64,000 nt of DNA from an uncultured Pseudomonas sp. (GCA_966210885.1 CBIHLQ010000004.1:13620-77619); one strand, 5' to 3'. Positions 1,332-16,181 are shown, numbered from the stretch's first letter. Numbers and translations: made by a program. The notes: a model not told the origin generated them from the sequence alone.

Positions 1332-4300
1332 ATGAACTTCTCCCAATTCTTTATTCAGCGGCCGATTTTCGCCGCGGTGCTGTCGCTGATCATCCTGATC
1401 GGCGGCGCCATCTCGCTGTTCCAGTTACCGATCAGCGAATACCCGGAAGTGGTGCCGCCGACCGTGGTGGTGCGCGCCAACTTCCCCGGCGCCAACCCCA
1501 AGGTGATCGGCGAAACCGTTGCCTCGCCGCTGGAACAGGCGATCACCGGCGTCGAAGGCATGTTGTATATGTCCTCGCAAGGCACGGCCGACGGCAAGAT
1601 GACCCTGACCCTGACCTTCGCCCTGGGCACCGACCTGGACAAAGCCCAGGTGCAGGTGCAGAACCGCGTGACCCGCACCATGCCGACCCTGCCCACCGAG
1701 GTGCAGCGCCTCGGCGTGACCGTCGACAAGGCTTCGCCGGACCTGACCATGGTCGTGCACCTGACCTCGCCCGACGACCGCTACGACATGCTTTACCTGT
1801 CCAACTACGCCGCGCTCAACGTCAAGGACGAGCTGGCACGGCTGGAGGGCGTCGGCGATGTGCAGTTGTTCGGCCTCGGCAACTATTCGCTGCGCGTCTG
1901 GCTCGACCCGAACAAGGTGGCCTCGCGCAATCTGACCGCTGCGGACGTGGTCAACGCCATCCGCGAGCAGAATCGTCAGGTCGCCGCCGGCTCGCTCGGC
2001 GCGCCGCCTTCGGCCGGCGACAACAGCTTCCAGCTGTCGATCAACACCCAGGGCCGTCTGGTCAGCGAGGAAGAGTTCGAGAACATCATCGTCCGTGCCG
2101 GTGAGAATGGCGAAATCACCCGTCTGAAAGACATCGCGCGGATCGAGCTGGGCTCCAGCCAATACGCCCTGCGCTCGTTGCTCAACAACAAGCCGGCGGT
2201 AGCCATCCCGGTGTTCCAGCGTCCCGGCTCCAACGCCATCGCCATTTCCGACGCGGTGCGCGCACGCATGGCCGAGCTGAAGCAGAGTTTCCCCGAGGGC
2301 GTCGATTACGAGATCGTCTACGACCCGACCATCTTCGTCCGCGGTTCGATCGAGGCGGTGGTGCATACGCTGCTCGAAGCCATCATTCTGGTGGTGCTGG
2401 TGGTCGTGCTGTTCCTGCAAACCTGGCGCGCTTCGATCATTCCGCTGGCCGCGGTGCCGGTGTCGTTGATCGGCACCTTCGCGGTGATGCACGCCTTCGG
2501 CTTCTCGCTAAACGCGCTGTCGCTGTTCGGCCTGGTGCTGGCGATCGGCATCGTGGTGGACGACGCCATCGTCGTGGTGGAGAACGTCGAACGTAATATC
2601 GGCCTGGGCAAAACCCCGGTGGAAGCCACCAAGCAGGCGATGAAGGAAGTCACCGGCCCGATAGTCGCGACCGCCCTGGTGCTGTGTGCGGTGTTCGTGC
2701 CGACCGCGTTCATCTCTGGCCTGAGCGGACAGTTCTATCAACAGTTCGCGCTGACCATCGCGATTTCCACGGTGATCTCCGCGTTCAACTCGCTGACCCT
2801 GTCCCCGGCCCTGGCCGCGGTGTTGTTGCGCAGTCACGATGCGCCCAAGGACGCCTTCTCCAAACTGCTCGACAGGCTGTTCGGCGGCTGGCTGTTCGCC
2901 CCGTTCAACCGTCTGTTCGAGCGCGCCAGTCACGGCTATGTCGGCACCGTGAAGCGCGTGCTACGTGGCAGCTCGGTGGCCCTGCTGGTGTATGCCGGGC
3001 TGATGGGCCTGACCTATCTGGGTTTTGCGACTACGCCAACAGGGTTTGTACCCGGGCAGGATAAACAGTACCTGGTGGCCTTCGCCCAGTTGCCGGACGC
3101 CGCGACCCTCGATCGCACCGAGGCGGTGATGAAAGAAATGTCGGACATCGCCGGCAAGCACCCCGGTGTGGAAAACACCATCGCCTTCCCCGGTCTGTCG
3201 ATCAACGGCTTCACCAACAGCCCGAACAGCGGCATCGTCTTCGTCGCCCTCAAAGACTTCGATCAGCGTAAGGACGAAAGCATGTCCGCCGGGGCCATTG
3301 CCGCTGAGCTCAACGGCCAGTTCGGCTCTATTCAGGAAGCCTATCTGGCGATCTTCCCGCCACCACCGGTTCAGGGCCTGGGCACCATCGGCGGCTTCCG
3401 CCTGCAAGTGCAGGACCGTGGCAACCTCGGCTACGACGAGCTGTACCTGCAGACCCAAAACGTCATCGCCAAGGCGCGCCAGCTGCCGGAGCTGGACCCG
3501 ATGTCGGTGTTTACCAGCTATCAAGTGAATGTGCCGCAGATCGATGCTGCCATCGACCGCGAGAAGGCCAAGACCCACGGCGTGGCGATCAGCGACATCT
3601 TCGACACCATGCAGATCTACCTGGGCTCGCTGTACGCCAACGACTTCAACCGTTTTGGCCGCACCTACCAGGTCAATGTGCAGGCCGAGCAACAGTTCCG
3701 CCTGGAGCCGCAACAGATCGGCCAGCTCAAGGTGCGCAACAACCGTGGCGAAATGATCCCGCTGTCGACCTTCGTCAAGGTCAGCGACAGCGCCGGCCCG
3801 GATCGGGTGATGCATTACAACGGCTTCCTCACCGCCGAGATCAACGGCGCGGCAGCCCCTGGCTACAGCTCCGGTCAGGCCGAAGCGGCGATTGCCAAAC
3901 TGCTCAAAGAGGAGCTGCCCAACGGCATGAGCTTCGAGTGGACCGACCTGACCTACCAGCAGATCCTTGCCGGTAACAGCGCGATCTTCGTCTTCCCGCT
4001 CTGTGTGCTGCTGGCCTTCCTGGTGCTGGCCGCCCAGTACGAAAGCTGGAGCCTGCCGCTGGCGGTGATCCTGATCGTGCCGATGACCCTGCTGTCGGCC
4101 ATCACCGGGGTGATCCTGGCCGGTGGCGACAACAACATCTTCACCCAGATCGGCTTGATCGTACTGGTGGGGCTGGCGTGCAAGAACGCCATTCTGATCG
4201 TCGAGTTCGCCAAGGAGAAACAGGAAGAAGGCATGGACCGCGTCGCCGCGGTGCTGGAAGCCTGCCGCCTGCGTCTGCGGCCGATCCTGATGACCAGCTT

Positions 4301-4511
4301 CGCCTTCATCATGGGTGTGGTGCCGCTGGTGTTGTCCTCCGGCGCCGGCGCGGAAATGCGCCACGCCATGGGGGTCGCGGTGTTCAGCGGCATGCTCGGG
4401 GTGACCTTCTTCGGTCTGCTGCTGACCCCAGTGTTCTATGTACTGATCCGCGCTTTTGTGGAGAAACACGCTGCGAAAAAAGCCGCGCGTTTGCAGGAGG
4501 TGCAGGCATGA
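1332..4511 (+). CDS. mexF: RND efflux transporter (MexF-like), 1059 aa
   Basis: MNFSQFFIQRPIFA start, GIVVDDAIVVVENVER and CKNAILIVEFA proton-relay motifs, RLRPILMTS. Confidence 0.95.
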   Translation: MNFSQFFIQRPIFAAVLSLIILIGGAISLFQLPISEYPEVVPPTVVVRANFPGANPKVIGETVASPLEQAITGVEGMLYMSSQGTADGKMTLTLTFALGTDLDKAQVQVQNRVTRTMPTLPTEVQRLGVTVDKASPDLTMVVHLTSPDDRYDMLYLSNYAALNVKDELARLEGVGDVQLFGLGNYSLRVWLDPNKVASRNLTAADVVNAIREQNRQVAAGSLGAPPSAGDNSFQLSINTQGRLVSEEEFENIIVRAGENGEITRLKDIARIELGSSQYALRSLLNNKPAVAIPVFQRPGSNAIAISDAVRARMAELKQSFPEGVDYEIVYDPTIFVRGSIEAVVHTLLEAIILVVLVVVLFLQTWRASIIPLAAVPVSLIGTFAVMHAFGFSLNALSLFGLVLAIGIVVDDAIVVVENVERNIGLGKTPVEATKQAMKEVTGPIVATALVLCAVFVPTAFISGLSGQFYQQFALTIAISTVISAFNSLTLSPALAAVLLRSHDAPKDAFSKLLDRLFGGWLFAPFNRLFERASHGYVGTVKRVLRGSSVALLVYAGLMGLTYLGFATTPTGFVPGQDKQYLVAFAQLPDAATLDRTEAVMKEMSDIAGKHPGVENTIAFPGLSINGFTNSPNSGIVFVALKDFDQRKDESMSAGAIAAELNGQFGSIQEAYLAIFPPPPVQGLGTIGGFRLQVQDRGNLGYDELYLQTQNVIAKARQLPELDPMSVFTSYQVNVPQIDAAIDREKAKTHGVAISDIFDTMQIYLGSLYANDFNRFGRTYQVNVQAEQQFRLEPQQIGQLKVRNNRGEMIPLSTFVKVSDSAGPDRVMHYNGFLTAEINGAAAPGYSSGQAEAAIAKLLKEELPNGMSFEWTDLTYQQILAGNSAIFVFPLCVLLAFLVLAAQYESWSLPLAVILIVPMTLLSAITGVILAGGDNNIFTQIGLIVLVGLACKNAILIVEFAKEKQEEGMDRVAAVLEACRLRLRPILMTSFAFIMGVVPLVLSSGAGAEMRHAMGVAVFSGMLGVTFFGLLLTPVFYVLIRAFVEKHAAKKAARLQEVQA

Positions 4512-5896
4512 AAGCATTGGCTCCCGCACTCCTGACCCTTGCGCTGACCGCTTGCGCCGTTGGCCCCGACTATCAAATGCCGGCAACCGCGCCGGCGCAG
4601 TTGAGCAGCGCCGAAACCGACAGCTACGACCGCTCGCGTTTCGAGGCGCTCTGGTGGCAGCAGTTCGACGACCCGACCCTGAACCGCTTGGTCCAGCAGT
4701 CGCTCGACGGCAACCGCCAACTGCGCGAGGCCTTCGCCCGTCTGCGCGCCGCCCGGGCTATTCGCGACGACGTCGCCAATGATCGCCTGCCGACCGTCAC
4801 CAGCCGCGCCAGCGGCGAGTTCGGCAAGGCCCAGCAGCCACCCACCAGCGAGCAGCGCATCCGTCAGGAACGCTATGACCTGGGCTTGGACATGGCCTGG
4901 GAGCTGGACCTGTTCGGCCGCATCCAGCGCCAACTGGAGGCCAGCGACGCGCAGATCGAGGTCGCCGAAGCCGACTACTACCAACTGCAAGTCAGTCTGA
5001 TCGCCGAGCTGGTGGATGCCTACGGCAACCTGCGCGGCGCGCAATTGCGCGAGCGCATCGCCCTGCAGAACCTGGAAAACCAGCAGGAGTCGCGGGCCAT
5101 CACCGAGCAATTGCGCGAAGCAGGCGTCGGCAGCGAACTGGATGTGCTGCGCAGCGACGCCCGCCTGGCCGCCACCGAAGCCAGCCTGCCGCAATTGCAA
5201 GCGCAGCAGCAACGGGCCAAACACCGTATCGCCACCCTGCTCGGCCAGCGCCCGGACCAGCTCGACGTGGATTTGTCCGCCGAGCCATTGCCGGCCATCG
5301 CCAAGGCCCTGCCGATCGGCGACCCGGCCGAACTGCTGCGGCGCAGGCCGGACGTGCGCGCCGCCGAGCGCCAGTTGGCGGCGGCAACGGCGAATATCGG
5401 CGTGGCCACCGCGGATCTGTTCCCACGGGTCAGCCTCAGCGGTTTTCTCGGCTTCGCCGCCGGCCGCGGTTCGCAGCTCGGTTCCTCGGCAGCGCGCGCT
5501 TGGAGCCTGGGCCCGAGCATCACCTGGGCGGCGTTCGACCTGGGCAGCGTGCGCGCGCGTTTACGCGGCGCCGAAGCCGAGGCCGAAGGCGCATTGGCCA
5601 ACTATGAACAGGAGGTCCTGCTGGCCCTGGAAGAATCGGCCAACGCCTTCAGCGACTACGCGAAGAACCAGCAACGCCTGCTCGCCCTGCTGCGCCAATC
5701 CGAAGCCAGCCGCGCCGCCGCCGAGCAAGCCGCGGTGCGCTACCGCGAAGGCGAAGTGGACTTCCTGGTACTGCTCGACGCCGAGCGCGAACGCCTCGCC
5801 GCCGAAGACGCCCAGGCCGTCGCCGAGGTCGAGCTGTACCGCGGCATAGTCGCCATCTACAAGGCGCTCGGCGGCGGTTGGCAGCCCAGCGCCTAG
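4508..5896 (+). CDS. oprN: Outer membrane efflux factor (OprN-like)
   Basis: ATG at 4508 overlaps the mexF stop (ATGA); lipobox LTAC; WELDLFG and RRPDVRAAE OMF motifs. The ORF-track start at 4178 is an over-extension. Confidence 0.92.
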   Translation: MKALAPALLTLALTACAVGPDYQMPATAPAQLSSAETDSYDRSRFEALWWQQFDDPTLNRLVQQSLDGNRQLREAFARLRAARAIRDDVANDRLPTVTSRASGEFGKAQQPPTSEQRIRQERYDLGLDMAWELDLFGRIQRQLEASDAQIEVAEADYYQLQVSLIAELVDAYGNLRGAQLRERIALQNLENQQESRAITEQLREAGVGSELDVLRSDARLAATEASLPQLQAQQQRAKHRIATLLGQRPDQLDVDLSAEPLPAIAKALPIGDPAELLRRRPDVRAAERQLAAATANIGVATADLFPRVSLSGFLGFAAGRGSQLGSSAARAWSLGPSITWAAFDLGSVRARLRGAEAEAEGALANYEQEVLLALEESANAFSDYAKNQQRLLALLRQSEASRAAAEQAAVRYREGEVDFLVLLDAERERLAAEDAQAVAEVELYRGIVAIYKALGGGWQPSA

Positions 5897-5930
5897 CTCT
5901 CTCCTTGGTTGGCCCAGCCAGCCTTTTCCC

Positions 5931-5963
5931 AGCCACGGTAACGCTCGTTACCGTGGTTTTTTT
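5931..5963 (+). terminator. Rho-independent terminator of mexEF-oprN
   Basis: CCACGGTAAC-GCTC-GTTACCGTGG perfect 10 bp stem followed by 7 T. Confidence 0.9.
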
Positions 5964-6279: not shown

Positions 6280-8946
6280 TCACTGCGCGATGTGCGAATC
6301 AGGTGCTATAACTTTTGCCTTATTCGGTACCACCAGCAGATCCATACCTGAGATAAAGGTGCCGTCGCCTGACACCGTTATCATCCGAGTCCCCGTATCG
6401 GTCAGCCCAAGGCGCTGTAGTTGCTCGGGTGAGACCCGTAGTAGGTAATCGCCGGCGACTACTCCGGGGATGATATAGAAGCCATCCCAGCTACTGGTTA
6501 TCTGGCCAACGATCTCCATCCGCTCGTCCAACAGCTCCAGTTGCATATCGCCGATGCCCCGCTTGTTCTCATGCTCGAACAGATAGACAGTGCCATCGAT
6601 TTCAGTGGTCATGCGCACTGGAAAATCCAGTTCGGCCACTCGACCAGGACGAGGCACCAGGCTATGGCCGGCGACCTCGGGTGCCCATTGCGGATCGCTC
6701 AGGGTGCTGGTATCCACGCCTATATCGACACGCTGCTTGATCGGCAGTTGCCTCATATGGGCGATGCCCTGCGCGTCTGTGCGGACTTGCCGCCTGCCAC
6801 CGTTAATGGTGAACCCTGCCCCCTCCAGCGGATCCTCGCCGGGATCCATCACCCCGTTATTGTTGTTGTCCAGAAACATGCGTACGGAGGCGGCACCGGT
6901 ATTTGCCATAGGCTGTGCATCGAGCAGCCAGTCGGCCTTGCGTGGATCTCGGCCCAGGGAGAGAAAGAACTGCATACCGACTGCGATATCGCCGCTGTCC
7001 AGGTAGCTGGCGTTGACCCCCAGGCCGAATCGCCCCAGGCTTTTGGTGAAGCCGGCGGTATAACGTGTTTCGGGCGACTGAAAGCTGTGCGCAATACCCA
7101 GGGTCAGCCGATAACCCTCCGCCAGGTACTTGTCCGCCGTTAGGGCCACGCTGGCGAGTTCCGCCTGGGGGGCCAGGTTGTAGCTCAGTTGGCCACGAAA
7201 ACTCATATCGCGTATGCGTTGGCTGAGCTGCAAATTGCCGAAAGCGAACTCGTCGCCATTGATGGAATGCCAGTTGAGGGTATTGCTCAGCGCCGTGCGA
7301 TAGGCATACCCGGAGATGCGGGTGCTGACATCGTTATCGATTCGGCCGGATTCGTGCTCATCGCGAGTCGCCTGAAAGGTGATCGGTATCCGTGAGCGAG
7401 CGCCCACCGGAATGGAGCCGCTCAACCGTAGCTCATCACGGCTCTTGATGGGATCGTTGTAGAAGAGGAAGTAGTCGCTTTTGAAGTCGTAGAGAAACAA
7501 ACGACTGGCATCTATCGAAACGCCGCCGAGACGAGTCTGCAAGCCGAGTTCCGTTAGCGAGCCACCCTCTTGATCTCTGATCAGATCGGTGTTCAGACTC
7601 AAAGATTGCCAGAAAGTCCTCAGCCCGATATTGGAATACTGATGTTCGACACCATCCACGGGCGCTCTGATCAAGCCACCTGTGGCAGAGAGCGTTCGGG
7701 ACAATCCCATATCGAACTGGGCGATTGAGCGCGTCAGACCATCCTCGTCGCGATGCTCGATCAGGTTGTACTGGAGTTCGCCCGGCAACACCATGGACTC
7801 GGCGAGGGAGTAGCTATATTGCTCGACCTGGGTTTGCCCCAGGGGACCATGGAAAACCAATTGAAAGTCGTTGCGGCCATAGCTCAGGGGCTGGTCCTCA
7901 AAGCGATAGCGGCCCTCGGCATTGGGTTGCTGGAAGCCCACCAGTGCGCCGTTGTAGAAGAGTTCCACATCCCACCCCGGCGGCAGGTCGCCCTCAAAAG
8001 TCTGGCGGTCGAACTGCGTGGGCCGGGTCAGTGGCCGATTGCTCAGGGTGATCCCCTCGCCGGCTCTGCCCTGGGTAATGTTATCCACGCTCGGAGTGGA
8101 AAGACTGCCGAATTGGAAGGATCGCGCCTGCAGGGGGCCCAGCAGGCCGCCATCCGGATCGTGCCGCCCAAAGGTCGCGCGTATTTCTTGTGACTCACCT
8201 GCTGTATCGCCATTGAGATAAAGGGTGGACTCCATGCCCAGCAGATCGCCCGTCAAGAGTGCGGTGTAACGGCTATCGGTATGGGTGCCGGTATCGTCGC
8301 GGCGGGCTTCCGTCGCGAATGTCTGATCGATGAAGGGGGTGCTCAACATCTGATAAGGCATGTCGTGACGTGGATAGCCGGGATCCTCGTAGGCGCCATG
8401 CCTCCCGGCCCGCTCACCGACGCGTGCGCGCCGCAAGCGGGCCTGTAACGGTAAAGGTTCGAGCGGATAGACCTGCAATGTCAGCCTCGGTCGGTCGACC
8501 TCCAGCTCTATCGGTAGCCAGCGCTCGATCAACGATACCGCGACGTACAGATCGTCTGGCTCCGCCTGCACCAGCGCGGGATCGAAGGCTTCCGTTTCAC
8601 CGGCCAGGGTAATGCGAGCCTCTTTCAGGTTCAGGCTGAATCCGCGGTCCTCGCTCAGGACGAAACCGCTGGCGGTACCCTGCCCGGGCTGGGTCTGCAC
8701 CGCGATCGTGAGCAGGCGCGCCAGCTCGCCCAGAGGCAACAAGGTGTGTTCACCCATGTCAAAGGCAGGAATGGCGTCGGACAGCACCGATTGATCCAGA
8801 CGCACCTCGAGCAGCAGGCTCGGCTCAGAAGACTCAAGCCCAGGTTCCTGGGCGGCCAGGATACCGGCATGGCCCAGCAGCCCCGGCAATAACGCCAGCC
8901 GGACGAACCTACCCACCGCCCTCTGACAGGCTGCTAAAAATTTCAT
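6280..8946 (-). CDS. Atypical fimbrial usher-like outer membrane protein with C-terminal SdrD-B/carboxypeptidase-regulatory-like domains, 888 aa
   Basis: Signal peptide; usher plug-like segment EGDLPPGWDVELFYNGALVG...YRFEDQPLSYGRNDFQLVFHGPLGQ; amphipathic beta-strand core; C-terminal FLDNNNNGVMDPGE motif; lies downstream of a chaperone and pilins. Confidence 0.8.
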   Translation of the reverse strand: MKFLAACQRAVGRFVRLALLPGLLGHAGILAAQEPGLESSEPSLLLEVRLDQSVLSDAIPAFDMGEHTLLPLGELARLLTIAVQTQPGQGTASGFVLSEDRGFSLNLKEARITLAGETEAFDPALVQAEPDDLYVAVSLIERWLPIELEVDRPRLTLQVYPLEPLPLQARLRRARVGERAGRHGAYEDPGYPRHDMPYQMLSTPFIDQTFATEARRDDTGTHTDSRYTALLTGDLLGMESTLYLNGDTAGESQEIRATFGRHDPDGGLLGPLQARSFQFGSLSTPSVDNITQGRAGEGITLSNRPLTRPTQFDRQTFEGDLPPGWDVELFYNGALVGFQQPNAEGRYRFEDQPLSYGRNDFQLVFHGPLGQTQVEQYSYSLAESMVLPGELQYNLIEHRDEDGLTRSIAQFDMGLSRTLSATGGLIRAPVDGVEHQYSNIGLRTFWQSLSLNTDLIRDQEGGSLTELGLQTRLGGVSIDASRLFLYDFKSDYFLFYNDPIKSRDELRLSGSIPVGARSRIPITFQATRDEHESGRIDNDVSTRISGYAYRTALSNTLNWHSINGDEFAFGNLQLSQRIRDMSFRGQLSYNLAPQAELASVALTADKYLAEGYRLTLGIAHSFQSPETRYTAGFTKSLGRFGLGVNASYLDSGDIAVGMQFFLSLGRDPRKADWLLDAQPMANTGAASVRMFLDNNNNGVMDPGEDPLEGAGFTINGGRRQVRTDAQGIAHMRQLPIKQRVDIGVDTSTLSDPQWAPEVAGHSLVPRPGRVAELDFPVRMTTEIDGTVYLFEHENKRGIGDMQLELLDERMEIVGQITSSWDGFYIIPGVVAGDYLLRVSPEQLQRLGLTDTGTRMITVSGDGTFISGMDLLVVPNKAKVIAPDSHIAQ

Positions 8947-8960
8947 GGCAGACGTGCTGA

Positions 8961-9878
8961 TCAGGGCAGCTGAAGAACCGCCTCGGCCAGCAGGTCGCCG
9001 CCGTCCTCCGCCTGTTCCCGGTAAGTGATCCGCAGCACCCCATTGGCCAATTGCAGGCCGCCTGGAGGATCGAGCCTCAGCTTGGCGCGCCGCAGCGGAT
9101 TAGGGGTATAGACGGCCACGCCATTGGCACGACCGATGATCTGTTCGGCGCCCCCCTTGGGGGTGAAACTGGCAGCCAGATCGCCGTAAACGGACTGATT
9201 GCCGCTGCGCTCCATCTGCAAGGCCAGCAGTGATTGCCCGCGAGGCAGGTGCTGAAGCTCGAGCTGGGTCAAGGCCACGTCGGCATCGGTATTGCCATGG
9301 CGAACAATGACTGGGATGGAGATGCCGAGCAACGTATTCAGGACGATCCCGATGCCTTTGTCATTGCGGGTTTCGATGCTGGATCTGCCTTTGGCTTCCG
9401 GCAACTGGGTAAACAGCAAGTGCGAACGGTATTCTCCTGCCGCAAGATCGCCGGGTTTGCGCACCATGATGCGGACAGTCTGCCCCGCCCCCGGAGCAAG
9501 CGTCACCTGTCTCGGGGAATAGCGCAGCATGCTGTCGGAAAACTGCTCGCCTGGCTGTGGGGTCTCGATGTCTGAAAAGGCTCCGGTTTCGTCCATGCGC
9601 CGATTAACCAGGCTGATTCGATAAGTCGCGCTTTGGCTACCATTGTTGATCAATTCAAGCTGGGCTGCCCGCTGGTTGCCCTTGAAGACTATGCGGGTTG
9701 GATAAAGCATCAGCTCCGCCAGCGCTTCGCTCATACAGAACAGCATGAGCACACCGCATACAACTGCAGTTAAACGCCGGGGAAACCGGCTCGTGGCCAA
9801 AGTCCAGGAACAGGATGATTGAATCATGGCTCCGGCTGTTCCGGTGCGGATAGCTCTAGTCGAAGTGGTAACGCTCAT
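8961..9878 (-). CDS. Periplasmic pilus chaperone (PapD-N/EcpB-like)
   Basis: LMLYPTRIVF, YSPRQVTLAPGAGQTVRI and GEYRSHL motifs; ATG at 9878 has an AAGGA RBS 8 nt upstream (alternative start 9827). Confidence 0.85.
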   Translation of the reverse strand: MSVTTSTRAIRTGTAGAMIQSSCSWTLATSRFPRRLTAVVCGVLMLFCMSEALAELMLYPTRIVFKGNQRAAQLELINNGSQSATYRISLVNRRMDETGAFSDIETPQPGEQFSDSMLRYSPRQVTLAPGAGQTVRIMVRKPGDLAAGEYRSHLLFTQLPEAKGRSSIETRNDKGIGIVLNTLLGISIPVIVRHGNTDADVALTQLELQHLPRGQSLLALQMERSGNQSVYGDLAASFTPKGGAEQIIGRANGVAVYTPNPLRRAKLRLDPPGGLQLANGVLRITYREQAEDGGDLLAEAVLQLP

Positions 9879-9994
9879 TTTCCAATTCCTTCTAATTCCA
9901 CTTGTTCCCTGCGATCTGCGCAGGAAATGTGGATCCTTATTGAGCGGCATCTTTTTGCCGTTTCGACGAGGGTCGCCTGTGAATCTCGCTTGGC

Positions 9995-10459
9995 TCAGTT
10001 GTAGTTGACGATAACCATGAAACTGCCCGAATACTGGCCGGCAGTCTGACCGCTGCCCACCTGGAGAGCGGCACCCACCGACAAGGTCTGGGAGCCGCCC
10101 GCACTCAATTGGCCGCCTGCTTCCGACGGCGTGCTGGTGAAATCGTTGATAATCATGTCGGCGCCCGGCCCAGTCAGCTTTACAAAGTCGTTGGCTGGCA
10201 ACTCTATGGTATAGGTGGCATTGGGGTCGCCGGTGACCGTGAACTTGGCGGCCTGGCCTGCACTCGAAGGGATCAGCATCACGTCCCCGCTGGCACTGCG
10301 CATATCGTTGGTATCGACCGCCACGGTACCACCAACGCCAGCTACGAAGCTGCCGAAGGCCAAGGACTGGGTATTCTGGATGGCGATTTCCGCGCGGACA
10401 CTGGGAGCCATGAGGACGGCCAGTAGACTAACCGCGGCGATCGGCAGGTAATGCTTCAT
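9995..10459 (-). CDS. DUF4402-like pilin subunit 3 (candidate tip/minor subunit)
   Basis: Signal peptide MKHYL...VRA, LAFGSF, VGAALQVGSGQTAGQYSGSFMVIVNYN; start has a GAGAGAG RBS. Confidence 0.85.
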   Translation of the reverse strand: MKHYLPIAAVSLLAVLMAPSVRAEIAIQNTQSLAFGSFVAGVGGTVAVDTNDMRSASGDVMLIPSSAGQAAKFTVTGDPNATYTIELPANDFVKLTGPGADMIINDFTSTPSEAGGQLSAGGSQTLSVGAALQVGSGQTAGQYSGSFMVIVNYN

Positions 10460-10506
10460 TGGCTCTCTCTCGGGTGGGTGATTCCAGAGTACTGCAGGGC
10501 CCGATA

Positions 10507-10935
10507 TCAATTGTAGGTTATGGTGATACTGATATCGCTTATGCCGGAGGGACTGTCGCCAGTAGCTTTCAGAATGATACCGCTTACCGGATCACCATCA
10601 AGCAGCCCTTCCTGATCCACCAGCCTGAGGCAATCGCCCCGACCAGCACAACCTGTATCTACTTTCTCCTGCAGTTGGGCAATGATTAAGCGAAAACGAT
10701 CTTCATCCGTTCCGGCCATGAATTCGCTGGGAAGACGAATTATCAGATCCCCCGTGAGGCCGCTGACAAACACGGCCGTACCTTGCGGCATAAGCGTTTC
10801 GTTGATTTTGACCGGAGCGACTATCCTGGCGCTAGCCATCGCCGCTGCCCGGTTTGCACAGGTACTGCCGCTGACCCCGGCCATGCTCGAGGCCAGCGCA
10901 AATACAAGGGCGAAGCTGCCGAAACCCAACCTCAT
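10507..10935 (-). CDS. Short divergent DUF4402-like pilin subunit 2
   Basis: Signal peptide, ASARIVAP segment homologous to TSATVVVP of pilin 1, C-terminal ISITITYN, two Cys. Confidence 0.65.
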   Translation of the reverse strand: MRLGFGSFALVFALASSMAGVSGSTCANRAAAMASARIVAPVKINETLMPQGTAVFVSGLTGDLIIRLPSEFMAGTDEDRFRLIIAQLQEKVDTGCAGRGDCLRLVDQEGLLDGDPVSGIILKATGDSPSGISDISITITYN

Positions 10936-10991
10936 AGTTCCGCCCCCTTTCCGCTGGGCCAGCGGCCTCCTTGCCCCGCACCGGAGAACTG

Positions 10992-11531
10992 TTAGTTATA
11001 GTTCACTTCTGCCGTGATGGTGCCAGAGTAAACTCCTGTTGTTTGAGCATTCCCCACAGTCAGAGTCCCACCGACATAGAGTGTCTGTGTACCACCGGTG
11101 AGCGTGCCGCTCGCCGGACTATTCTCTGTAGCGCCATCGAGGTCGTGGACGGTCGCAAGGGCCATAGTCGTGACGGTATCCGTATGAGTCAGATTGTCGT
11201 CCGTGACGCTGATGCTGAAGCTGGCGTCGGCTTGGCCGGTAACCGTGAACTGCGCAGCGGCAGCAGTGCCCCCCGTCAGTACAACATCGCCGGTCGGGCT
11301 AGCCGCACCGCCAGTAGTCAATACGACGGTGCCGCCCGTGCCCGCAGCGAATTCGCCGAAAGAAAGATCCTGGGCCTGTGCAATCGCGATGGGCACAACG
11401 ACCGTAGCGCTGGTAGTGGCGGTGTCGCTTACTGCAGCAGCAAAACTGTTGGAAGCGCCAAAAGCCCCCAACGCGGCGACCGAAGCCACCGCGGCAAGAC
11501 GGAAGTTCTTGCTAGAAAGAATAGATTTCAT
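10992..11531 (-). CDS. DUF4402-like major pilin candidate, 179 aa
   Basis: Signal peptide, Ala/Thr/Gly-rich, DLSFG motif, YVGGTLTVGNAQTTGVYSGTITAEVNYN end; first gene of the operon. Confidence 0.88.
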   Translation of the reverse strand: MKSILSSKNFRLAAVASVAALGAFGASNSFAAAVSDTATTSATVVVPIAIAQAQDLSFGEFAAGTGGTVVLTTGGAASPTGDVVLTGGTAAAAQFTVTGQADASFSISVTDDNLTHTDTVTTMALATVHDLDGATENSPASGTLTGGTQTLYVGGTLTVGNAQTTGVYSGTITAEVNYN

Positions 11532-11590
11532 AGGTAAATCCCCTTGTTAAGCCATGTCGCAGACGTGCTTGCCGTCAACAGCAGCTTGAA

Positions 11591-11653
11591 CTGAAACACC
11601 AATCACAGGGGATCCGAAAACGGGCCAATGAGGGGGCCGAAAACAGACCAATG
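11591..11653. repeat. Three imperfect direct repeats in the pilin 5' leader
   Basis: GAAACACCAATC / GAAAACGGGCCAATG / GAAAACAGACCAATG; the last two also share a GGGG(A/G)..CC prefix, about 23 nt period. Confidence 0.6.
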
Positions 11654-11697
11654 TAGCCTGAGCACCGAGAAAGCGGCTCGAAAAAACTACATTGAAT

Positions 11698-11786
11698 GTC
11701 GACGGTCCCGCTGTCATGAGGCTTTAGGGCCCTTTAGACCGGTGACTTTGCGTCTCCGCCTTTCGACGGGTTTGCCTTTATCGCAC
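11698..11786 (-). ncRNA. c-di-GMP-I (GEMM-I) riboswitch aptamer upstream of the pilin operon
   Basis: Minus strand reads GUGCGAUAAAGGCAAACCCGUCGAAAGGCGGAGACGCAAAGUCACCGGUCUAAAGGGCCCUAAAGCCUCAUGACAGCGGGACCGUCGAC. It has GGCAAAC, a P2 stem with GAAA tetraloop, GACGCAAAG, a UCUAA..AUGA tetraloop receptor and P1 GU(g)CGAU/GUCGAC. Confidence 0.9.
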
Positions 11787-11839
11787 CTTAAGGATAGTCA
11801 ACTCGGATGAATGCGCAATTTGGGCGTCGCTTGCAAAGC

Positions 11840-12137
11840 GTAGTCTAATTTCGCTAGACGCCTCTGCCGCTGGAAAAGCCACCGGAAGAGATGTCATGTA
11901 TGAGCCGTAAATGCAGAGTGTCCAACGCCAACTTCAAGCCGCAAGTCGTGCAGATGGTGAAGGAGAAAAGCCTGATTGTGCCTCGGAGTTGATAGGTGAG
12001 ACGGCGGTTCGCCGTTGGTTTCAGCAGTACAACGCCAAGCTACCCGGATAGTCCGGAATCAGTAAGCCGCGAACCTTCAAGCAACAACGAATCCGCTAGT
12101 TCGAAGCTGTCAGCTCAAGCAGTAAAACGACCTGTTA
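11840..12137 (+). pseudogene. Decayed IS3-family element end with transposase OrfA remnant
   Basis: From ATG 11900, across stops and frameshifts: MSRKCRVSNANFKPQVVQMVKEKSL..GETAVRRWFQQYNA..SGISKPRTFKQQRIR*FEA..QLKQ*NDLL, which matches the IS3 OrfA HTH plus leucine-zipper pattern; IR-like GTAGTCTAATTTCGCTAGACGCC at about 11840. Confidence 0.75.
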
Positions 12138-12462
12138 GGCTATTGGCGTCACTATCAGGGCAATTTGCTCGGCTGATCCGATTGCTCGTCGAGATCGCCG
12201 CCGAAGGAGTCATCGGCGCCCTCCGCCCCGTAGCGGCATAGGCCGGGTCGACATCATAGGCGCCACCCGGCACCTGCGCGCCCTTCTCAAACGCCTCGCG
12301 ATTGCGCTCGATCGCCTGTCTCACCGCCTGAGGGGCGTCCTTCGCCACCTTGCCTTTGGTTGCGTCGCCGTTCGTCTTGTCCTTCGCGGAATCGCCTTGC
12401 GGCGGATTGCCGGGAATCTGGCATTGCTCGCTGTTTTTCGGGGTATCGGGTTGCCGACTCAT
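12115..12462 (-). CDS. Hypothetical hydrophilic low-complexity protein, 115 aa
   Basis: GGAG RBS before ATG 12462; no recognisable domain; 3' end overlaps the IS remnant. Confidence 0.4.
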   Translation of the reverse strand: MSRQPDTPKNSEQCQIPGNPPQGDSAKDKTNGDATKGKVAKDAPQAVRQAIERNREAFEKGAQVPGGAYDVDPAYAATGRRAPMTPSAAISTSNRISRANCPDSDANSLTGRFTA

Positions 12463-12679
12463 GATTCGAACTCCAATCGATGTGCGCACCCGGTAGAGAA
12501 AAACGCAGGTAAAAGTGCGCATCCCGGGATCGGCGGTTATGCCTTTCAGCGTCGCCCGAACGGCTGCCGTAGATCGACTGGAACGCCCGTGCTTGAGCCG
12601 CTTCACCGCTTCCGTGAACTATCTCGAATGTCGGTGCTCACATGGGTTATGTGCACTCAGCAATGGTCTACGCCGCCCT

Positions 12680-13105
12680 ATGGACAGCCAAGAGAGCAGC
12701 CGGATAGCCGCTCCGCTGGCGCGCTGTCTCGGAGAGCATGCGGATGCCATGCAGATCGCCGATGCGATTGTTGTCGTGTGGAGTGAAATTGATAGCGCCC
12801 TGGCGCCGATTATCGGGCACGGGGGGGTGATTGCGCTGTGCAAGCGCAGCCTTTATCTCGCCGCCCAGCGACACGCCTGCCTGACTGACGCTTATGCAAG
12901 CATCCAGTCAGGGGGCGAGTTCACCGATTTTAAGCCAGTTATCGCGCAACAGACCGGCATCACTGTCTCCGTCGGCGATGAGGTTTTCCAACAGTTCAAT
13001 GGGTTGCTTGTGTCGTTGATCGGCAGCTCTCTCACCGAGCGATTGCTGCGCTCCGTGTGGGAAAACTCGTTGGCCGCGCCGCCCGCGCAGGAGCATTTGC
13101 CATGA
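12680..13105 (+). CDS. Small alpha-helical protein coupled to the KaiC-like ATPase, 141 aa
   Basis: MDSQESSRIAAPL start; stop overlaps the ATPase start (ATGA at 13102-13105). Confidence 0.7.
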   Translation: MDSQESSRIAAPLARCLGEHADAMQIADAIVVVWSEIDSALAPIIGHGGVIALCKRSLYLAAQRHACLTDAYASIQSGGEFTDFKPVIAQQTGITVSVGDEVFQQFNGLLVSLIGSSLTERLLRSVWENSLAAPPAQEHLP

Positions 13106-14562
13106 AAAAAGTAGCCATCAACTGTTTGTCTACTGGCATTGCGGGCCTGGATCGAGTCCTGGCCGGTGGGTTGCCGGAGCTTTCCTTCAATGTGATCGCC
13201 GGCGCCCCCGGCTGCGGTAAGACCACGCTGTCGCATCAACTCATGTTCGAAATGGTCAAGCACAATGCCCCAGCGCTGTATTTCACGGGATTGGGCGAGC
13301 CTCCGTTGAAAATGCTGCGTCACCAGCAGCAGTTCGATTTCTTCGACGACGAGAAGATCGGCCAGTCGATCCACTTTATCAACCTGACGGAGGATATCTT
13401 CGGCGGCGACCTCAAGTTGATGCTGCAGCGGATCGTCGACGAGGTACTAAGCCATCAACCCAAGCTGGTATTCGTCGACTCCTTCCGCGCTGCGGTGCAC
13501 TCCAACGAGGTGGAGCAACAGCCGAACAGCGATCTGCAGCAATTTATGCAGCAGCTCGGGCTATTGTTGACCAGTTGGCAGATCACCTCGTTCCTGATCG
13601 GCGAATACTTTTCCGAGGTCGGCAACAACCCAGTGTTCACGGTGGCCGATGGCTTGATCTGGCTACATAAGGACGTGCATCGCAACTCCTTGGTGCGCAA
13701 GTTGGAAGTCATGAAAATGCGCGGTCAGCCAGTCCTGCCGGGGCTACATACCTACCGACTCAGCTTGCATAAAGGCATCGAAGTATTCGCACCCTCCGAT
13801 AGCCTGGCGCTGCCTGAGTGCATCCGTCCCTCGGAGACTTCCCGCCTGGGGATGGGGGTGGAGCATCTGGACGAGATGCTCGGGGGCGGTTTGCCGAGTG
13901 GTTATGCGCTGTTGGTGGTAGGCCCTTCGGGGTCTGGCAAGTCGACTCTGGCCATGGCGTTCTTGGCCGAAGGCGTACGCAACGGCGAGACCGCGGTGAT
14001 TGCCAATTTCGATAAAAATCCCTATCTGTCGTGCAACCCAGCACTCGTCAATTTGTTGAACAGTGGACAGATCGGCGTGCTGTACAGCCTCGCCCCCGAT
14101 CTGTCGATCGATGAGATTGCGCTCAAGTTGGTCGACGAAATCCGCCGACTCAAGGCGACCCGCGTGGTGATCGATTCGCTATCGGGCCTCGAACTCTCCC
14201 TGGCCCCGACCTCCCGCGCGGACTTCCGCGAATCGCTGGCTCGCCTGACCAGGACCCTGTCCAACACCGGTGTCAGCGTGCTGTTGATCTCCGAACTCGA
14301 GGATAGCTATACCGAGTTGCGCTTAAGCCCTCACGACACCGCGTTCCTCGCCGACGCAATCATCATGCAGCGCTATATCGAAGTCGACAGCAGGCTGCTG
14401 CGGGTGATGGCGGTGGTCAAGGTTCGGGGCAGCAAGCACTCCAATCAACTGCGTCAATTCACTATCGACGACGAGGGTATTCACCTGGGCGAACCCTTGA
14501 TAAATCAGGAAGGGTTGCTGGGTGGCCAGCCAACGGCAAATACCGGTAACGATTCGGCCTGA
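13102..14562 (+). CDS. KaiC-like double-domain RecA-superfamily ATPase, 486 aa
   Basis: Two Walker A motifs (GAPGCGKT, GPSGSGKS), Walker B motifs (VFVDS, VVIDS), KMRG and KVRG arginine fingers; GGAG RBS. Confidence 0.92.
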   Translation: MKKVAINCLSTGIAGLDRVLAGGLPELSFNVIAGAPGCGKTTLSHQLMFEMVKHNAPALYFTGLGEPPLKMLRHQQQFDFFDDEKIGQSIHFINLTEDIFGGDLKLMLQRIVDEVLSHQPKLVFVDSFRAAVHSNEVEQQPNSDLQQFMQQLGLLLTSWQITSFLIGEYFSEVGNNPVFTVADGLIWLHKDVHRNSLVRKLEVMKMRGQPVLPGLHTYRLSLHKGIEVFAPSDSLALPECIRPSETSRLGMGVEHLDEMLGGGLPSGYALLVVGPSGSGKSTLAMAFLAEGVRNGETAVIANFDKNPYLSCNPALVNLLNSGQIGVLYSLAPDLSIDEIALKLVDEIRRLKATRVVIDSLSGLELSLAPTSRADFRESLARLTRTLSNTGVSVLLISELEDSYTELRLSPHDTAFLADAIIMQRYIEVDSRLLRVMAVVKVRGSKHSNQLRQFTIDDEGIHLGEPLINQEGLLGGQPTANTGNDSA

Positions 14563-14591: not shown

Positions 14592-16181
14592 TTGAACAAA
14601 AAACGGGGCCGCGGCCCGGATACGGCCAAAGCTCGACCTGAATCGACGCCCGATCAACCGATCGAGTCGGTGTCGCAAAAGAAGTTGGACGAACTGAAGA
14701 AGCGTCTGGACGATAGCCATCCGTCGCCACTGGTGGAAGCCAACGAGCAGTTGGTGTTCGCCATGTTGCGCACCCAGATCAAGGCCGAGCAAGCCGAGCG
14801 CAAACTCCAGGAGGCTTTGCGCCTGGTCGAGCTGGACGCATTGACGGGCCTGCCGAACCGCGTGCTGTTTTTCGACCGTTTCACCCGTGCGATCGCCAAT
14901 GCCAAGCGGCATAACCAGCGTTTGGCGCTGTTGTTCCTCGACCTCAACAACTTCAAGCAAATCAACGACACCCTCGGCCATAGCGTGGGCGACGAGGTGC
15001 TCAAGCATGCGGCAAGGTGCTTCGTCTCCTCGGTGCGCGAGGCCGATACCGTCAGTCGTCTGGGCGGCGATGAGTTTTTGATCCTGCTCACGGAAGTTAC
15101 CCAGCCCGCCGATGCGACCTTGATCGCCAGAAAAGTCACGGCGGCGCTCGGCACGCCGAACCGTATCGGCGAGCACCTGTTGCGCCTGACCACCAGCATC
15201 GGCATCAGCATCTATCCCGACGATGGCGATACGCCCGACGAACTCGTCGAGCGCGCCGATGCCGCCATGTACCGGGCCAAGCGGCACGGGCTGGGCGGCT
15301 TCGTGTTTCACGGCGAGGCCAACGACAGCGAGCCGCTCGACCCGCCCGTCAGCTCGCTCAAGCGTCTGGTTACCCACTATGAGTTGTTACAGGCCGAGCA
15401 TGATCGGCACAGCTGCGACTTGTTGGAAGCCAACGAACAGTTGGTCCTGGCCGCCCTGACCGCACAGGCCCTGCAAGCCGAGGCGGAACAGGCGGAGCGC
15501 CGGCAAAAGGACGCCCTGACTCTGCTCACGCATGAAGTGCGCACGGCCTTGACGCCGATCCGCATGGTCGCGGAATTGTTAAGTCGCCCTAGCCAGCACG
15601 TGCCACTGCGCTTGCAACAGGTTTTCGAACGCAAGGTAAGCCATCTGTACCGCGTGCTGGACGACCTGCTGCATATCTCGCGCGCTAGCGTCGCCAAGTT
15701 GAAGCTCGAGCGGCAAACGGTCGATTTGAACCATATCGTCGAATCGGTGGTGCAAACCTGGCGGCCGGAGATGGACAGTCGAACACAGCGTTTTGAACTG
15801 CGGATGCCGCAACAGGCACTGTTGTTGGAAGGCGACCCGATGAGGCTGGAACAGATTTTCGACAACCTGCTCGGCAACGCCTGCCAATACACCCCGGCGG
15901 GCGGACAGATCGCGCTGACCGCGAAGTGCGAAGGCGATACCGTCGTCATCACGATCAACGACAGTGGCGTCGGCATCGATACCGAACTGTTGCCGAACAT
16001 CTTCGAGCCGTTCGTGCAGACGCCCGGCGCCATCGACTTCGACAGCGGCGGTTTGGGCATCGGGCTCACGGTGGTGCGCGAACTGGTCCTGGCCCACGGC
16101 GGCGAGGTCGCCGCCAGCAGTGCTGGCCCCGGTCTCGGTAGCCAGTTCGTGGTCAAACTGCCTCTGCTCGGGCAATCTTAA
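14592..16181 (+). CDS. GGDEF diguanylate cyclase - HisKA - HATPase_c fusion protein, 529 aa
   Basis: DALTGLPNR, DLNNFKQINDTLGHSVGD, READ I-site plus RLGGDEF; THEVRT H-box, NLLGNA N-box, DSGVGI, IFEPF, GLGIGL. Start codon (TTG) uncertain. Confidence 0.88.
   Translation: MNKKRGRGPDTAKARPESTPDQPIESVSQKKLDELKKRLDDSHPSPLVEANEQLVFAMLRTQIKAEQAERKLQEALRLVELDALTGLPNRVLFFDRFTRAIANAKRHNQRLALLFLDLNNFKQINDTLGHSVGDEVLKHAARCFVSSVREADTVSRLGGDEFLILLTEVTQPADATLIARKVTAALGTPNRIGEHLLRLTTSIGISIYPDDGDTPDELVERADAAMYRAKRHGLGGFVFHGEANDSEPLDPPVSSLKRLVTHYELLQAEHDRHSCDLLEANEQLVLAALTAQALQAEAEQAERRQKDALTLLTHEVRTALTPIRMVAELLSRPSQHVPLRLQQVFERKVSHLYRVLDDLLHISRASVAKLKLERQTVDLNHIVESVVQTWRPEMDSRTQRFELRMPQQALLLEGDPMRLEQIFDNLLGNACQYTPAGGQIALTAKCEGDTVVITINDSGVGIDTELLPNIFEPFVQTPGAIDFDSGGLGIGLTVVRELVLAHGGEVAASSAGPGLGSQFVVKLPLLGQS

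Follow-up and report, generated by a model that had tools for sequence, protein, structure and literature searches.

The archaic (sigma) chaperone-usher systems, such as Csu of Acinetobacter baumannii and CupE of Pseudomonas aeruginosa, are widespread in environmental bacteria, as is the module reported here. Their operons follow the scheme csuA/B-A-B-C-D (small pilins, chaperone, usher), with the gene for a two-domain tip adhesin after the usher gene; the pilins, with a conserved Cys pair, belong to the SCPU family (PF05229/COG5430) and the ushers to PF00577. In the classical Fim/Pap systems, the usher (FimD, PapC) has the layout published for PapC: a beta-barrel of 24 strands whose plug is inserted between strands 6 and 7, flanked by one N-terminal and two C-terminal domains. 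Classical pilins carry a tyrosine at the penultimate position and a glycine 14 residues from the end. The Caf1/FGL systems (Caf1M, Caf1A, Caf1) have a single subunit and, like the locus reported here, lack a two-domain adhesin.

We analysed a window of 64,000 nt from an uncultured Pseudomonas sp. The minus strand of 6280-11531 encodes three small secreted proteins, followed by a chaperone and an outer-membrane protein of 888 aa (Table 1), an arrangement resembling that of Csu and CupE. The original prediction had read this region as pilin-pilin-pilin-chaperone-usher, and five minus-strand ORFs were indeed recovered in this order. All three subunits carry signal peptides, judged by eye from a basic n-region, a hydrophobic core and an A-x-A-like site, and all end in YN, as had been claimed. 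A two-domain adhesin gene, present after the usher gene in the sigma systems and already reported as missing here, was not found in the window flanks. Next after the usher gene comes an efflux gene in convergent orientation, and in 80 related loci examined no gene is conserved beside the module, the region downstream of the usher included. We consider it likely that the locus is a chaperone-usher fibre system, complete and acquired horizontally, whose deep lineage escapes current usher models. The five-gene cassette would then most likely use the chaperone-usher route to build a fibre on the cell surface.

Table 1. Features of the chaperone-usher module and its upstream region (positions counted from the first nucleotide of the window)
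Feature	Position	Strand	Description
Subunit 1	10992-11531	-	179 aa; ends ...VNYN
Subunit 2	10507-10935	-	142 aa; ends ...TITYN
Subunit 3	9995-10459	-	154 aa counted from MKHYL; ends ...VNYN
Chaperone (PapD-like by sequence)	8961-9827	-	288-aa precursor, ~251 aa mature
Usher-like outer-membrane assembly platform (predicted)	6280-8946	-	888 aa
Usher N-terminal periplasmic domain (predicted)	8464-8820	-	aa 43-161
Usher plug domain (predicted)	7792-8019	-	aa 310-385, between barrel strands 6 and 7
Two usher C-terminal periplasmic beta-sandwich domains (predicted)	6322-6894	-	aa 685-780 and 781-875
c-di-GMP-I (GEMM-I) riboswitch aptamer	11698-11786	-	upstream of subunit 1; Rfam RF01051
166-nt leader (expression platform)	11532-11697	-	between aptamer and subunit 1
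5.6-kb mobile unit	6296-11917	-	riboswitch, leader and five genes; blastn

The subunits had all been described as DUF4402-like. In the Pfam search this held for subunit 1 (92.7 bits, E 4e-26) and subunit 3 (101.6 bits, E 7e-29), both far above the cut-off of 25.2, but not for subunit 2, which matched no Pfam model at all. The SCPU and Fimbrial models gave no match to any module protein (SCPU searched at E <= 0.1), and the relation to the SCPU pilins of the sigma systems is confined to weak profile homology (DUF4402 profile, hhalign E 1e-5 to 1e-4). Whereas two Cys were found in 15 of 15 Cup-E-like pilins of relatives, subunits 1 and 3 contain none, in line with the original prediction; subunit 2 has three. 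From the classical systems the module differs in having neither a subunit disulfide nor a lectin-domain adhesin. The AlphaFold (AF2) model of subunit 1 (pLDDT 87.3) found Caf1 as its top Foldseek match, along with CsuA/B, the PapG pilin domain, CfaB and FimF/G. Its best 50 PDB matches are almost all chaperone-usher pilins, though weak (best E 1e-3, TM 0.45-0.59); the model resembles such pilins and not a generic closed Ig domain. The subunit C-termini share with classical pilins the penultimate Tyr and the Gly 14 residues from the end.

Subunit types can be told apart by their N-termini. Subunit 1 has a conserved N-terminal extension (..ATxTVxxP..), in which the segment ..SATVVVP-IAIA.. presumably resembles the N-terminal donor-strand region of Caf1. 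The distance from signal cleavage to the FG motif is 24 residues in 53 of 60 orthologues of subunit 1 and only 10-14 residues in all 57 of subunit 3, for which homology to subunit 1 begins at the first core strand (hhalign E 3e-37). Across 57-60 loci the extension occurs in the subunit-1 and subunit-2 types and is missing from the subunit-3 types, a pattern that is indirect evidence for the putative donor-strand complementation and exchange. Subunit 2 has the N-terminal motif of subunit 1 and a ..TxxYN end; it aligns with the subunit-1 profile over its N-terminal part only (hhalign 86%, E 5e-6), and S-A-T-V-I-A-P as well as a terminal YN/FN are common to all of its 11 positional homologues. 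It is missing from many loci, most of those in Massilia included, and many loci encode two subunits only. Assigning roles solely by presence or absence of the 12-15-residue extension, we regard subunit 1 as the probable major polymerising subunit and subunit 2 as a small, fast-evolving minor subunit. No related locus has the extension in its subunit 3, an absence that suggests a tip subunit without a donor strand and makes subunit 3 a candidate for this position.

The same machinery could also yield a product other than a discrete pilus, namely a thin, flexible or amorphous polymer making up a layer like a capsule or coat. Layers of this kind are known from the Caf1 (F1) polymer of FGL systems and from Myxococcus with its spore coat protein U system. 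The top rank of Caf1 among the structural matches of subunit 1, the absence of a two-domain adhesin, the many two-subunit loci and the weak homology to SCPU (spore coat protein U) pilins would all agree with such a layer. A conserved subunit type without extension is, however, the signature expected of an ordered fibre with a defined tip, and Caf1-type systems have a single subunit, in contrast to the two or three types found here. We consider a coat-like product unlikely.

The chaperone gene starts at the ATG at 9827, which is preceded by GGAG; the longest ORF begins at 9950. Judged by its sequence, the product is a periplasmic PapD-like chaperone, as originally proposed. PapD_N (PF00345) scored 25.5-26 bits versus a cut-off of 23 and was matched in 57 of 60 orthologues. 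PapD_C was matched in 0 of 60 family members, whose C-terminal half of ~110 aa is conserved. In alignments, a PTR(I/V)xF motif falls on the A1 strand of FimC, PapD and CupB2; PapD_N and the T-R motif of this strand are shared with the classical systems. Sequence similarity to solved chaperones is marginal (E 0.06-0.55). For sigma-type chaperones hhalign gave E 5e-5 over 178 columns, and the G1 motif, S-I-P-V-I-V here, corresponds in the alignment to S-V-P-L-F-A in the Cup-E-like chaperones. Unlike the FGL chaperones with their conserved disulfide, the mature protein is free of Cys, as had been noted in the original prediction, because its three Cys all precede the cleavage site between ALA and ELM.

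Upstream of the first structural gene lies a c-di-GMP-I riboswitch aptamer, a feature just outside the region covered by the original prediction and absent from it. RF01051 was matched over the full model (1-87) with 73.1 bits against a gathering score of 35 (E 2e-13). The aptamer is co-oriented with subunit 1 and ends 166 nt before its ATG, a position directly before the first structural gene that is likewise seen for c-di-GMP-I riboswitches of other surface-appendage and adhesion genes. Unlike those elsewhere, this element rides in a mobile cassette and is the sole one in an otherwise riboswitch-free genus sample: the host genome has a single RF01051 copy, that at the operon, and a c-di-GMP-I riboswitch was found in 0 of 15 same-genus species. 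In 21 related loci, too, the same riboswitch sits upstream of the first pilin gene. Within the leader, pairing is possible between a C-rich segment, GGAUCCCCU (11607-11615), and the Shine-Dalgarno region, AGGGGAUUU (11536-11544), and is present in the MFE fold. A helix is seen at the matching position (-75 to -93 nt) in ~11 related leaders, where compensatory changes occur (UGAUCUCC:GGAGAUUG, for example). Whereas classical Fim/Pap operons have phase-variable or regulator-driven promoters, expression of this operon would thus be tied to c-di-GMP by a putative class I riboswitch, be it an ON or an OFF switch. Given a riboswitch and a leader able to sequester the ribosome-binding site, production of the fibre probably belongs to the sessile, biofilm state. 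In the literature searched we found no paper linking a c-di-GMP riboswitch to a chaperone-usher operon.

The cassette moves between bacteria as a whole, riboswitch included. Another uncultured Pseudomonas genome (L007) shares exactly the mobile unit of Table 1 at 92% identity in blastn and neither of its flanks, and the reading frames of that copy are kept. GC content is 56-60% in the cassette versus 63-69% in the left flank. The usher-like gene was found in 0 of 24 same-genus species. A PF00577 search of the whole host genome gave no match, while 14 of 18 same-genus species have PF00577 ushers. Horizontal acquisition, together with the failure of a simple scan to find a clear sigma-70 promoter for the operon, could also mean that the cassette is a silent passenger in its present host, unexpressed or non-functional there, whatever its role elsewhere. 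This seems improbable to us: none of the five reading frames, the aptamer or the Shine-Dalgarno sites is disrupted, the frames were likewise preserved in the diverged L007 copy, and enzymes that make c-di-GMP are encoded by the host, one of them at a distance of 3 kb from the cassette. The order pilin-(pilin)-pilin-chaperone-usher is found in ~76 of 80 loci, kept in Gamma- and Betaproteobacteria, Desulfuromonadaceae and others as well as on a Polaromonas plasmid, and the usher family comprises 2,748 clusters at 50% identity (E <= 1e-30).

For the 888-aa protein, the AlphaFold model (pLDDT 81.8) is predicted to have the architecture of an usher, with barrel, plug and periplasmic N- and C-terminal domains. 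In the DSSP string, 6 barrel strands precede and 18 follow an insert of six strands, i.e. a 24-strand barrel with a plug. When the model was compared with the PDB by Foldseek, ranks 1-18 were all FimD and PapC (E 4e-27 to 3.5e-13), aligned over the whole length (up to 933 columns) at ~12-15% identity. The barrel with a plug that the original prediction called for is thus predicted, and the plug-like motif noted there is real, residues 326-390 pairing with the plug of classical ushers in profile-profile alignment. The plug aligns with that of sigma ushers as well; nowhere else is the family so conserved, and the motifs WDVELYYN and NEFRLVFHGPLGQ lie in it. The N-terminal domain, located before the barrel, is beta-rich (pLDDT 78-93). 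The C-terminal domains are of the transthyretin/CarboxypepD_reg/SdrD-B type in the model, their Pfam matches being sub-threshold in the window protein and in 43 of 43 homologues.

HMM searches for the families named in the original prediction thus recovered DUF4402 (subunits 1 and 3) and PapD_N (chaperone) but left the large protein without an Usher match. Usher (PF00577), PapC_N and PapC_C had no match at E <= 0.1 in the 888-aa protein and matched 0 of 43 family members, which sets it apart from the sigma ushers and places it outside PF00577 also in comparison with Caf1/FGL systems. Usher, chaperone and subunits are all strongly diverged, to the point that the usher-like protein is missed by standard annotation, and the NCBI name reads only "carboxypeptidase-like regulatory domain-containing". 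It is highly improbable that the protein is some other outer-membrane barrel (LptD-like or porin-like, with carboxypeptidase-regulatory-like domains), that the DUF4402 proteins are periplasmic or secreted and unrelated to fibres, and that the likeness reflects fold convergence, as the missing Pfam usher match, the NCBI name and the appearance of LptD and Occ porins further down the Foldseek list (E 1e-7 to 1e-5) might suggest, since FimD and PapC lead all other barrels by ~20 orders of magnitude in whole-length alignments, the plug aligns with usher plugs at the profile level, and the gene adjoins a PapD_N chaperone and pilin-fold proteins in nearly all loci.

Within the ushers, the family stands far off. 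It aligned with classical ushers from the plug onward into the downstream barrel (hhalign 93.5%, E 2e-7, 403 columns) and not significantly with sigma ushers (E 0.047), while sigma and classical ushers matched each other with E 6e-41; its profile distance to either group is thus much larger than that between the two. The overall usher architecture is shared with the classical systems; Pfam matches to Fimbrial, Usher, PapC_N/C or PapD_C are absent from the module. The proposal of a clade distinct from Cup and Csu is well supported by these profile distances, the Cys-less pilins and the lack of Usher, SCPU and Fimbrial matches, and our verdict is that the module represents a deep, undescribed branch of chaperone-usher systems.

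According to our model, all five proteins would be exported by Sec. In the periplasm, the PapD-like chaperone would capture the DUF4402 subunits, holding their C-terminal strand (...V-x-Y-N) and filling their open Ig-like fold. The 888-aa protein would act as the outer-membrane usher, with an N-terminal docking domain, a plug-closed 24-strand barrel and two C-terminal domains. Subunit 3, proposed to be a strand acceptor only as it lacks the extension, would be the first to enter and would sit at the distal tip as a cap. Subunit 1, having both extension and acceptor fold, would polymerise into the shaft by donor-strand exchange, and subunit 2, extension-bearing and optional across loci, may serve as adaptor or terminator. 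No part of this scheme would need disulfide bonds.

We lean slightly towards a wider reading, taken as a whole, in which such modules form a fourth major chaperone-usher lineage beside the classical, alternative and archaic ones. It would combine PF00577-invisible ushers, Cys-less DUF4402 pilins and a single-domain tip subunit without donor strand in place of the two-domain adhesin; many of its ushers would be tethered to peptidoglycan via SPOR, LysM or AMIN, and a large branch would be turned on directly by c-di-GMP via a riboswitch in the same mobile cassette. If so, it would amount to a plug-and-play adhesion organelle under second-messenger control. In usher homologues, SPOR, LysM or TPR domains follow the last C-terminal domain, or an AMIN domain is found at the N-terminus, which fits a location of both usher ends in the periplasm. 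Given their length, the full-length Foldseek alignments to FimD and PapC can take in the N-terminal domain. In the C-terminal region, F691, D693 and G698 are invariant and N695, D701 and E704 nearly so, forming a loop that resembles a calcium site.

The cassette comprises five closely spaced genes, all on the minus strand between positions 6280 and 11531, and a riboswitch leader. For the chaperone-like gene, the listed start was preferred over the longest open reading frame on the basis of the orthologue alignment and a GGAG box. The small proteins had been described as secreted subunits ending in YN, which was borne out: signal peptides are present (as judged by eye) and the C-termini read VNYN, TITYN and VNYN in subunits 1, 2 and 3. 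Cysteine is absent from subunits 1 and 3, as stated in the original prediction, and the mature chaperone is likewise cysteine-free, as all three of its cysteines fall within the signal peptide. The assignment of the pilins to DUF4402 (Pfam) stood for subunit 1 (E 4e-26) and subunit 3 (E 7e-29), but not for subunit 2, which has no Pfam match. An NCBIfam search of the operon proteins added no useful names.

Features of the cassette and its surroundings (window positions; aa, residues of the usher-like protein)
Feature	Position	Strand	Remarks
AcrB-family RND efflux pump	1332-4511		
Outer-membrane efflux protein	4508-5896		
Hairpin terminator	5931-5958		strong
Usher-like gene	6280-8946	-	888 aa
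N-terminal domain	aa 43-161		beta-rich, then a helix (AlphaFold secondary structure)
Barrel strands, first set	aa 205-302		six long strands (AlphaFold secondary structure)
Insert/plug	aa 314-380		six strands (AlphaFold secondary structure)
Barrel strands, second set	aa 391-664		eighteen long strands (AlphaFold secondary structure)
Two C-terminal beta-sandwich domains	aa 685-780, 781-875		AlphaFold secondary structure
Chaperone-like gene	8961-9827	-	ATG at 9827
Subunit 3	9995-10459	-	154 aa counted from MKHYL
Subunit 2	10507-10935	-	142 aa
Subunit 1	10992-11531	-	179 aa
Shine-Dalgarno region	11536-11544		
C-rich leader segment	11607-11615		
c-di-GMP-I aptamer	11698-11786	-	full-length; 73.1 bits vs gathering score 35
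ORF	12115-12606	-	no Pfam match
ORF	12515-13105	+	no Pfam match
KaiC-like double-domain ATPase	13057-14562		
Hybrid GGDEF diguanylate cyclase / HisKA-HATPase kinase	14592-16181		

From its sequence alone, the large protein would have escaped identification, since a PDB search with the single sequence gave no match and a profile search matched solely the SdrD B-domain, against the C-terminal domains. Its Pfam matches (CarboxypepD_reg and SdrD_B) are all sub-threshold, and the Usher, PapC_N and PapC_C models detect no member among 43 of its family, even with the threshold relaxed to E 0.1. An AlphaFold model built from 43 homologues (mean pLDDT 81.8) predicts a beta-barrel with a plug, in line with the plug-like motif noticed originally. 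It has 24 barrel strands, with the plug between strands 6 and 7, an arrangement published for PapC and FimD. When this model was compared with the PDB by Foldseek, FimD and PapC occupied ranks 1-18 (E 4e-27 to 3.5e-13; 12-15% identity, up to 933 columns), with LptD and porins ranking lower (E 1e-7 or worse). As modelled, the large protein has the structure of an usher but falls outside the usher sequence family. The plug is the most conserved part of the usher-like family, with the motifs WDVELYYN and NEFRLVFHGPLGQ.

The first C-terminal domain contains a family-wide loop, F-L-D-x-N-x-N-G-x-x-D-x-x-E, at and near aa 691-701 (window 6844-6876). F691, D693 and G698 are invariant and N695, D701 and E704 nearly so; the loop resembles the calcium site of SdrD B-type domains. 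Some homologous ushers (P0013, P0111, P0107, P0055/P0087) carry extra domains, namely SPOR, LysM or TPR beyond the final C-terminal domain, or an N-terminal AMIN; the protein of the window has none of these. Such periplasmic domains fit both usher ends being periplasmic, and suggest a tethering of these homologues to peptidoglycan. To our knowledge, no usher with a peptidoglycan-binding domain has been described.

Distances from known ushers were assessed by local profile-profile comparison, with reference usher sequences taken from genomes of the same genus. The usher-like family aligned with classical ushers at 93.5% probability (E 2e-7, 403 columns, beginning exactly at the plug) and with Cup-E-like sigma ushers at E 0.047. 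Sigma versus classical ushers, our yardstick, gave E 6e-41; the two known groups are therefore much closer to each other than either is to this family. The usher sequence family is the basis on which chaperone-usher pili are classified, counted and sought. The current scheme distinguishes six clades in three groups, and the usher-like family lies outside the sequence definition underlying it (PMC13734109). We agree with the original prediction: this is a chaperone-usher-type system of DUF4402 subunits that clearly belongs to neither the Cup nor the Csu family, and it likely works like a chaperone-usher pathway.

Two published systems were rejected as matches. That of PMC13734109 is of the sigma type with COG5430 pilins rather than of the usher-like/DUF4402 family. 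The CryoSeek TLP-1 fibrils, donor-strand-exchange fibrils of unknown origin (PMC11494351), are absent from the top 50 Foldseek matches of subunit 1. DUF4402, PF14352 and IPR025514 are not mentioned in the searchable literature, and a literature search for new or divergent ushers returned nothing relevant.

The chaperone scores 25.5 bits on PapD_N (Pfam cut-off 23); 57 of 60 orthologues also match PapD_N, and PapD_C is matched by none of the 60. In alignments with FimC, PapD and CupB2, the start of the mature protein, E-L-M-L-Y-P-T-R-I-V-F, pairs with their first strand, which places an invariant arginine at mature position 8. A profile search of the PDB found only FimC, and marginally so (E 0.06). 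Similarity to the Cup-E-like chaperones is modest (hhalign, E 5e-5); here, the G1-like segment G-I-S-I-P-V-I-V-R aligns with R-Y-S-V-P-L-F-A.

For subunit 1 (model pLDDT 87.3), nearly all of the best 50 PDB matches found by Foldseek are chaperone-usher pilins: Caf1, CsuA/B, the pilin domains of PapG and CsuE, CfaB, FimF/G, DraD, SafA and PapA. These matches are weak (best E 1e-3, TM 0.45-0.59), as is the homology between DUF4402 profiles and SCPU pilins (E 1e-5 to 1e-4). The subunits have a penultimate tyrosine and a glycine at -14, a pattern also known from classical pilins. Cysteine is lacking in 60/60 first pilins, 55/57 last pilins, 58/60 chaperones and 39/43 ushers, while Cup-E-like pilins carry two cysteines (15/15 examined).

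Alignments from 57-60 loci revealed that first and last pilins differ sharply at the N-terminus. First pilins possess a conserved extension (..A-T-x-T-V-x-x-P..) ahead of the first core strand, and in 53 of the 60 sequences signal cleavage and the FG motif are 24 residues apart; last pilins begin at the first core strand, and the same distance is 10-14 residues. Subunit 2 is a member of a rapidly evolving family, present between the two DUF4402 genes in some loci only, and shows the same extension motif (S-A-T-V-I-A-P) and a ..T-V-x-Y-N end. By analogy with characterised systems, the distal tip would be the only possible place for a subunit without a donor strand, here subunit 3. Donor-strand exchange, this tip role and the morphology and function of the product are points that we infer. 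With two or three subunits and no need for disulfides, the system could serve as a minimal model for studying donor-strand exchange, and its naturally donor-strand-less subunit as a clean test of assembly initiation.

Beyond the region considered originally, a c-di-GMP-I aptamer lies 166 nt upstream of the subunit 1 start codon. Of 9 diverse loci scanned with Rfam, 7 carry this element ahead of the first pilin; a second model, built from the Rfam matches and run over 80 loci, found it in that position in 21, including every Pseudomonas, Marinobacter and Halomonas locus for which sufficient sequence lies upstream. It is missing from most Massilia and Polaromonas loci. The source genome contains exactly one c-di-GMP-I aptamer and another genome of the same order likewise has only one, a short way upstream of its usher-like operon; none was found in 15 species of the genus. 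Within the leader, the C-rich segment is predicted to pair with the Shine-Dalgarno region, and about 11 related leaders have a helix at the equivalent position, with compensatory changes, which points to control of translation initiation. Judged from sequence, the riboswitch would link c-di-GMP to a chaperone-usher organelle directly at the RNA level, a route that can be tested and that we did not find described in the searchable literature. This link and the natural strand-less subunit are the most directly testable features. In L072, a related locus, two more c-di-GMP-I-like aptamers in divergent orientation (14812-14900, minus; 15300-15388, plus) are located some 5 kb downstream from the usher gene, unlinked to the pilin genes.

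About 76 of the 80 loci, spread over Pseudomonas, Marinobacter, Halomonas, Massilia, Polaromonas, Desulfuromonadaceae and others, keep the order pilin-(pilin)-pilin-chaperone-usher. This order also occurs on a Polaromonas plasmid, where NCBI names the products 'DUF4402 domain-containing', 'hypothetical', 'molecular chaperone' and 'carboxypeptidase-like regulatory domain-containing'. No conserved partner gene (adhesin, regulator) adjoins the module across the 80 loci. Searching 1.8 billion cluster representatives (50% identity clusters) with a profile yielded 2,748 usher-like proteins at E <= 1e-30. As the usher family misses these ~2,750 clusters, adhesin surveys of environmental Proteobacteria undercount such systems. 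Genomes like the source genome appear usher-free although they are not: it has no PF00577 usher genome-wide, which makes the DUF4402 system its only chaperone-usher-type machinery, while among 18 species sampled from the genus, 14 have between one and eleven PF00577 ushers.

None of 24 other species of the genus has the usher-like gene, and the operon has a GC content of 56-60%, lower than the 63-69% of the left flank. Exactly 6296-11917 is common to another uncultured Pseudomonas genome (L007; 92% identity), with neither flank shared, so that the mobile unit consists of riboswitch, leader and five genes. No direct repeats flank its borders. Related loci adjoin tRNA genes and, in L007, a C4 antisense RNA of the P1/P7-phage type (L007, 1362-1448; L008, 10368-10440; L032, 3613-3805; L025, 2541-2627); such neighbours fit insertion in genomic islands or prophage-like regions.

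The operon promoter was not located, a promoter/terminator scan being uninformative for the operon. Between riboswitch and KaiC-like gene (11787-13056), there are only ORFs without a Pfam match. The KaiC-like/GGDEF pair lies 1.3 kb from the riboswitch, and the GGDEF gene could be a local source of c-di-GMP. A circuit from KaiC via the diguanylate cyclase to the riboswitch was rejected: the riboswitch is real, but both genes lie outside the shared cassette and are not conserved beside the operon. On the other side (1332-5958), two efflux genes converge with the usher gene and end at a strong hairpin terminator.
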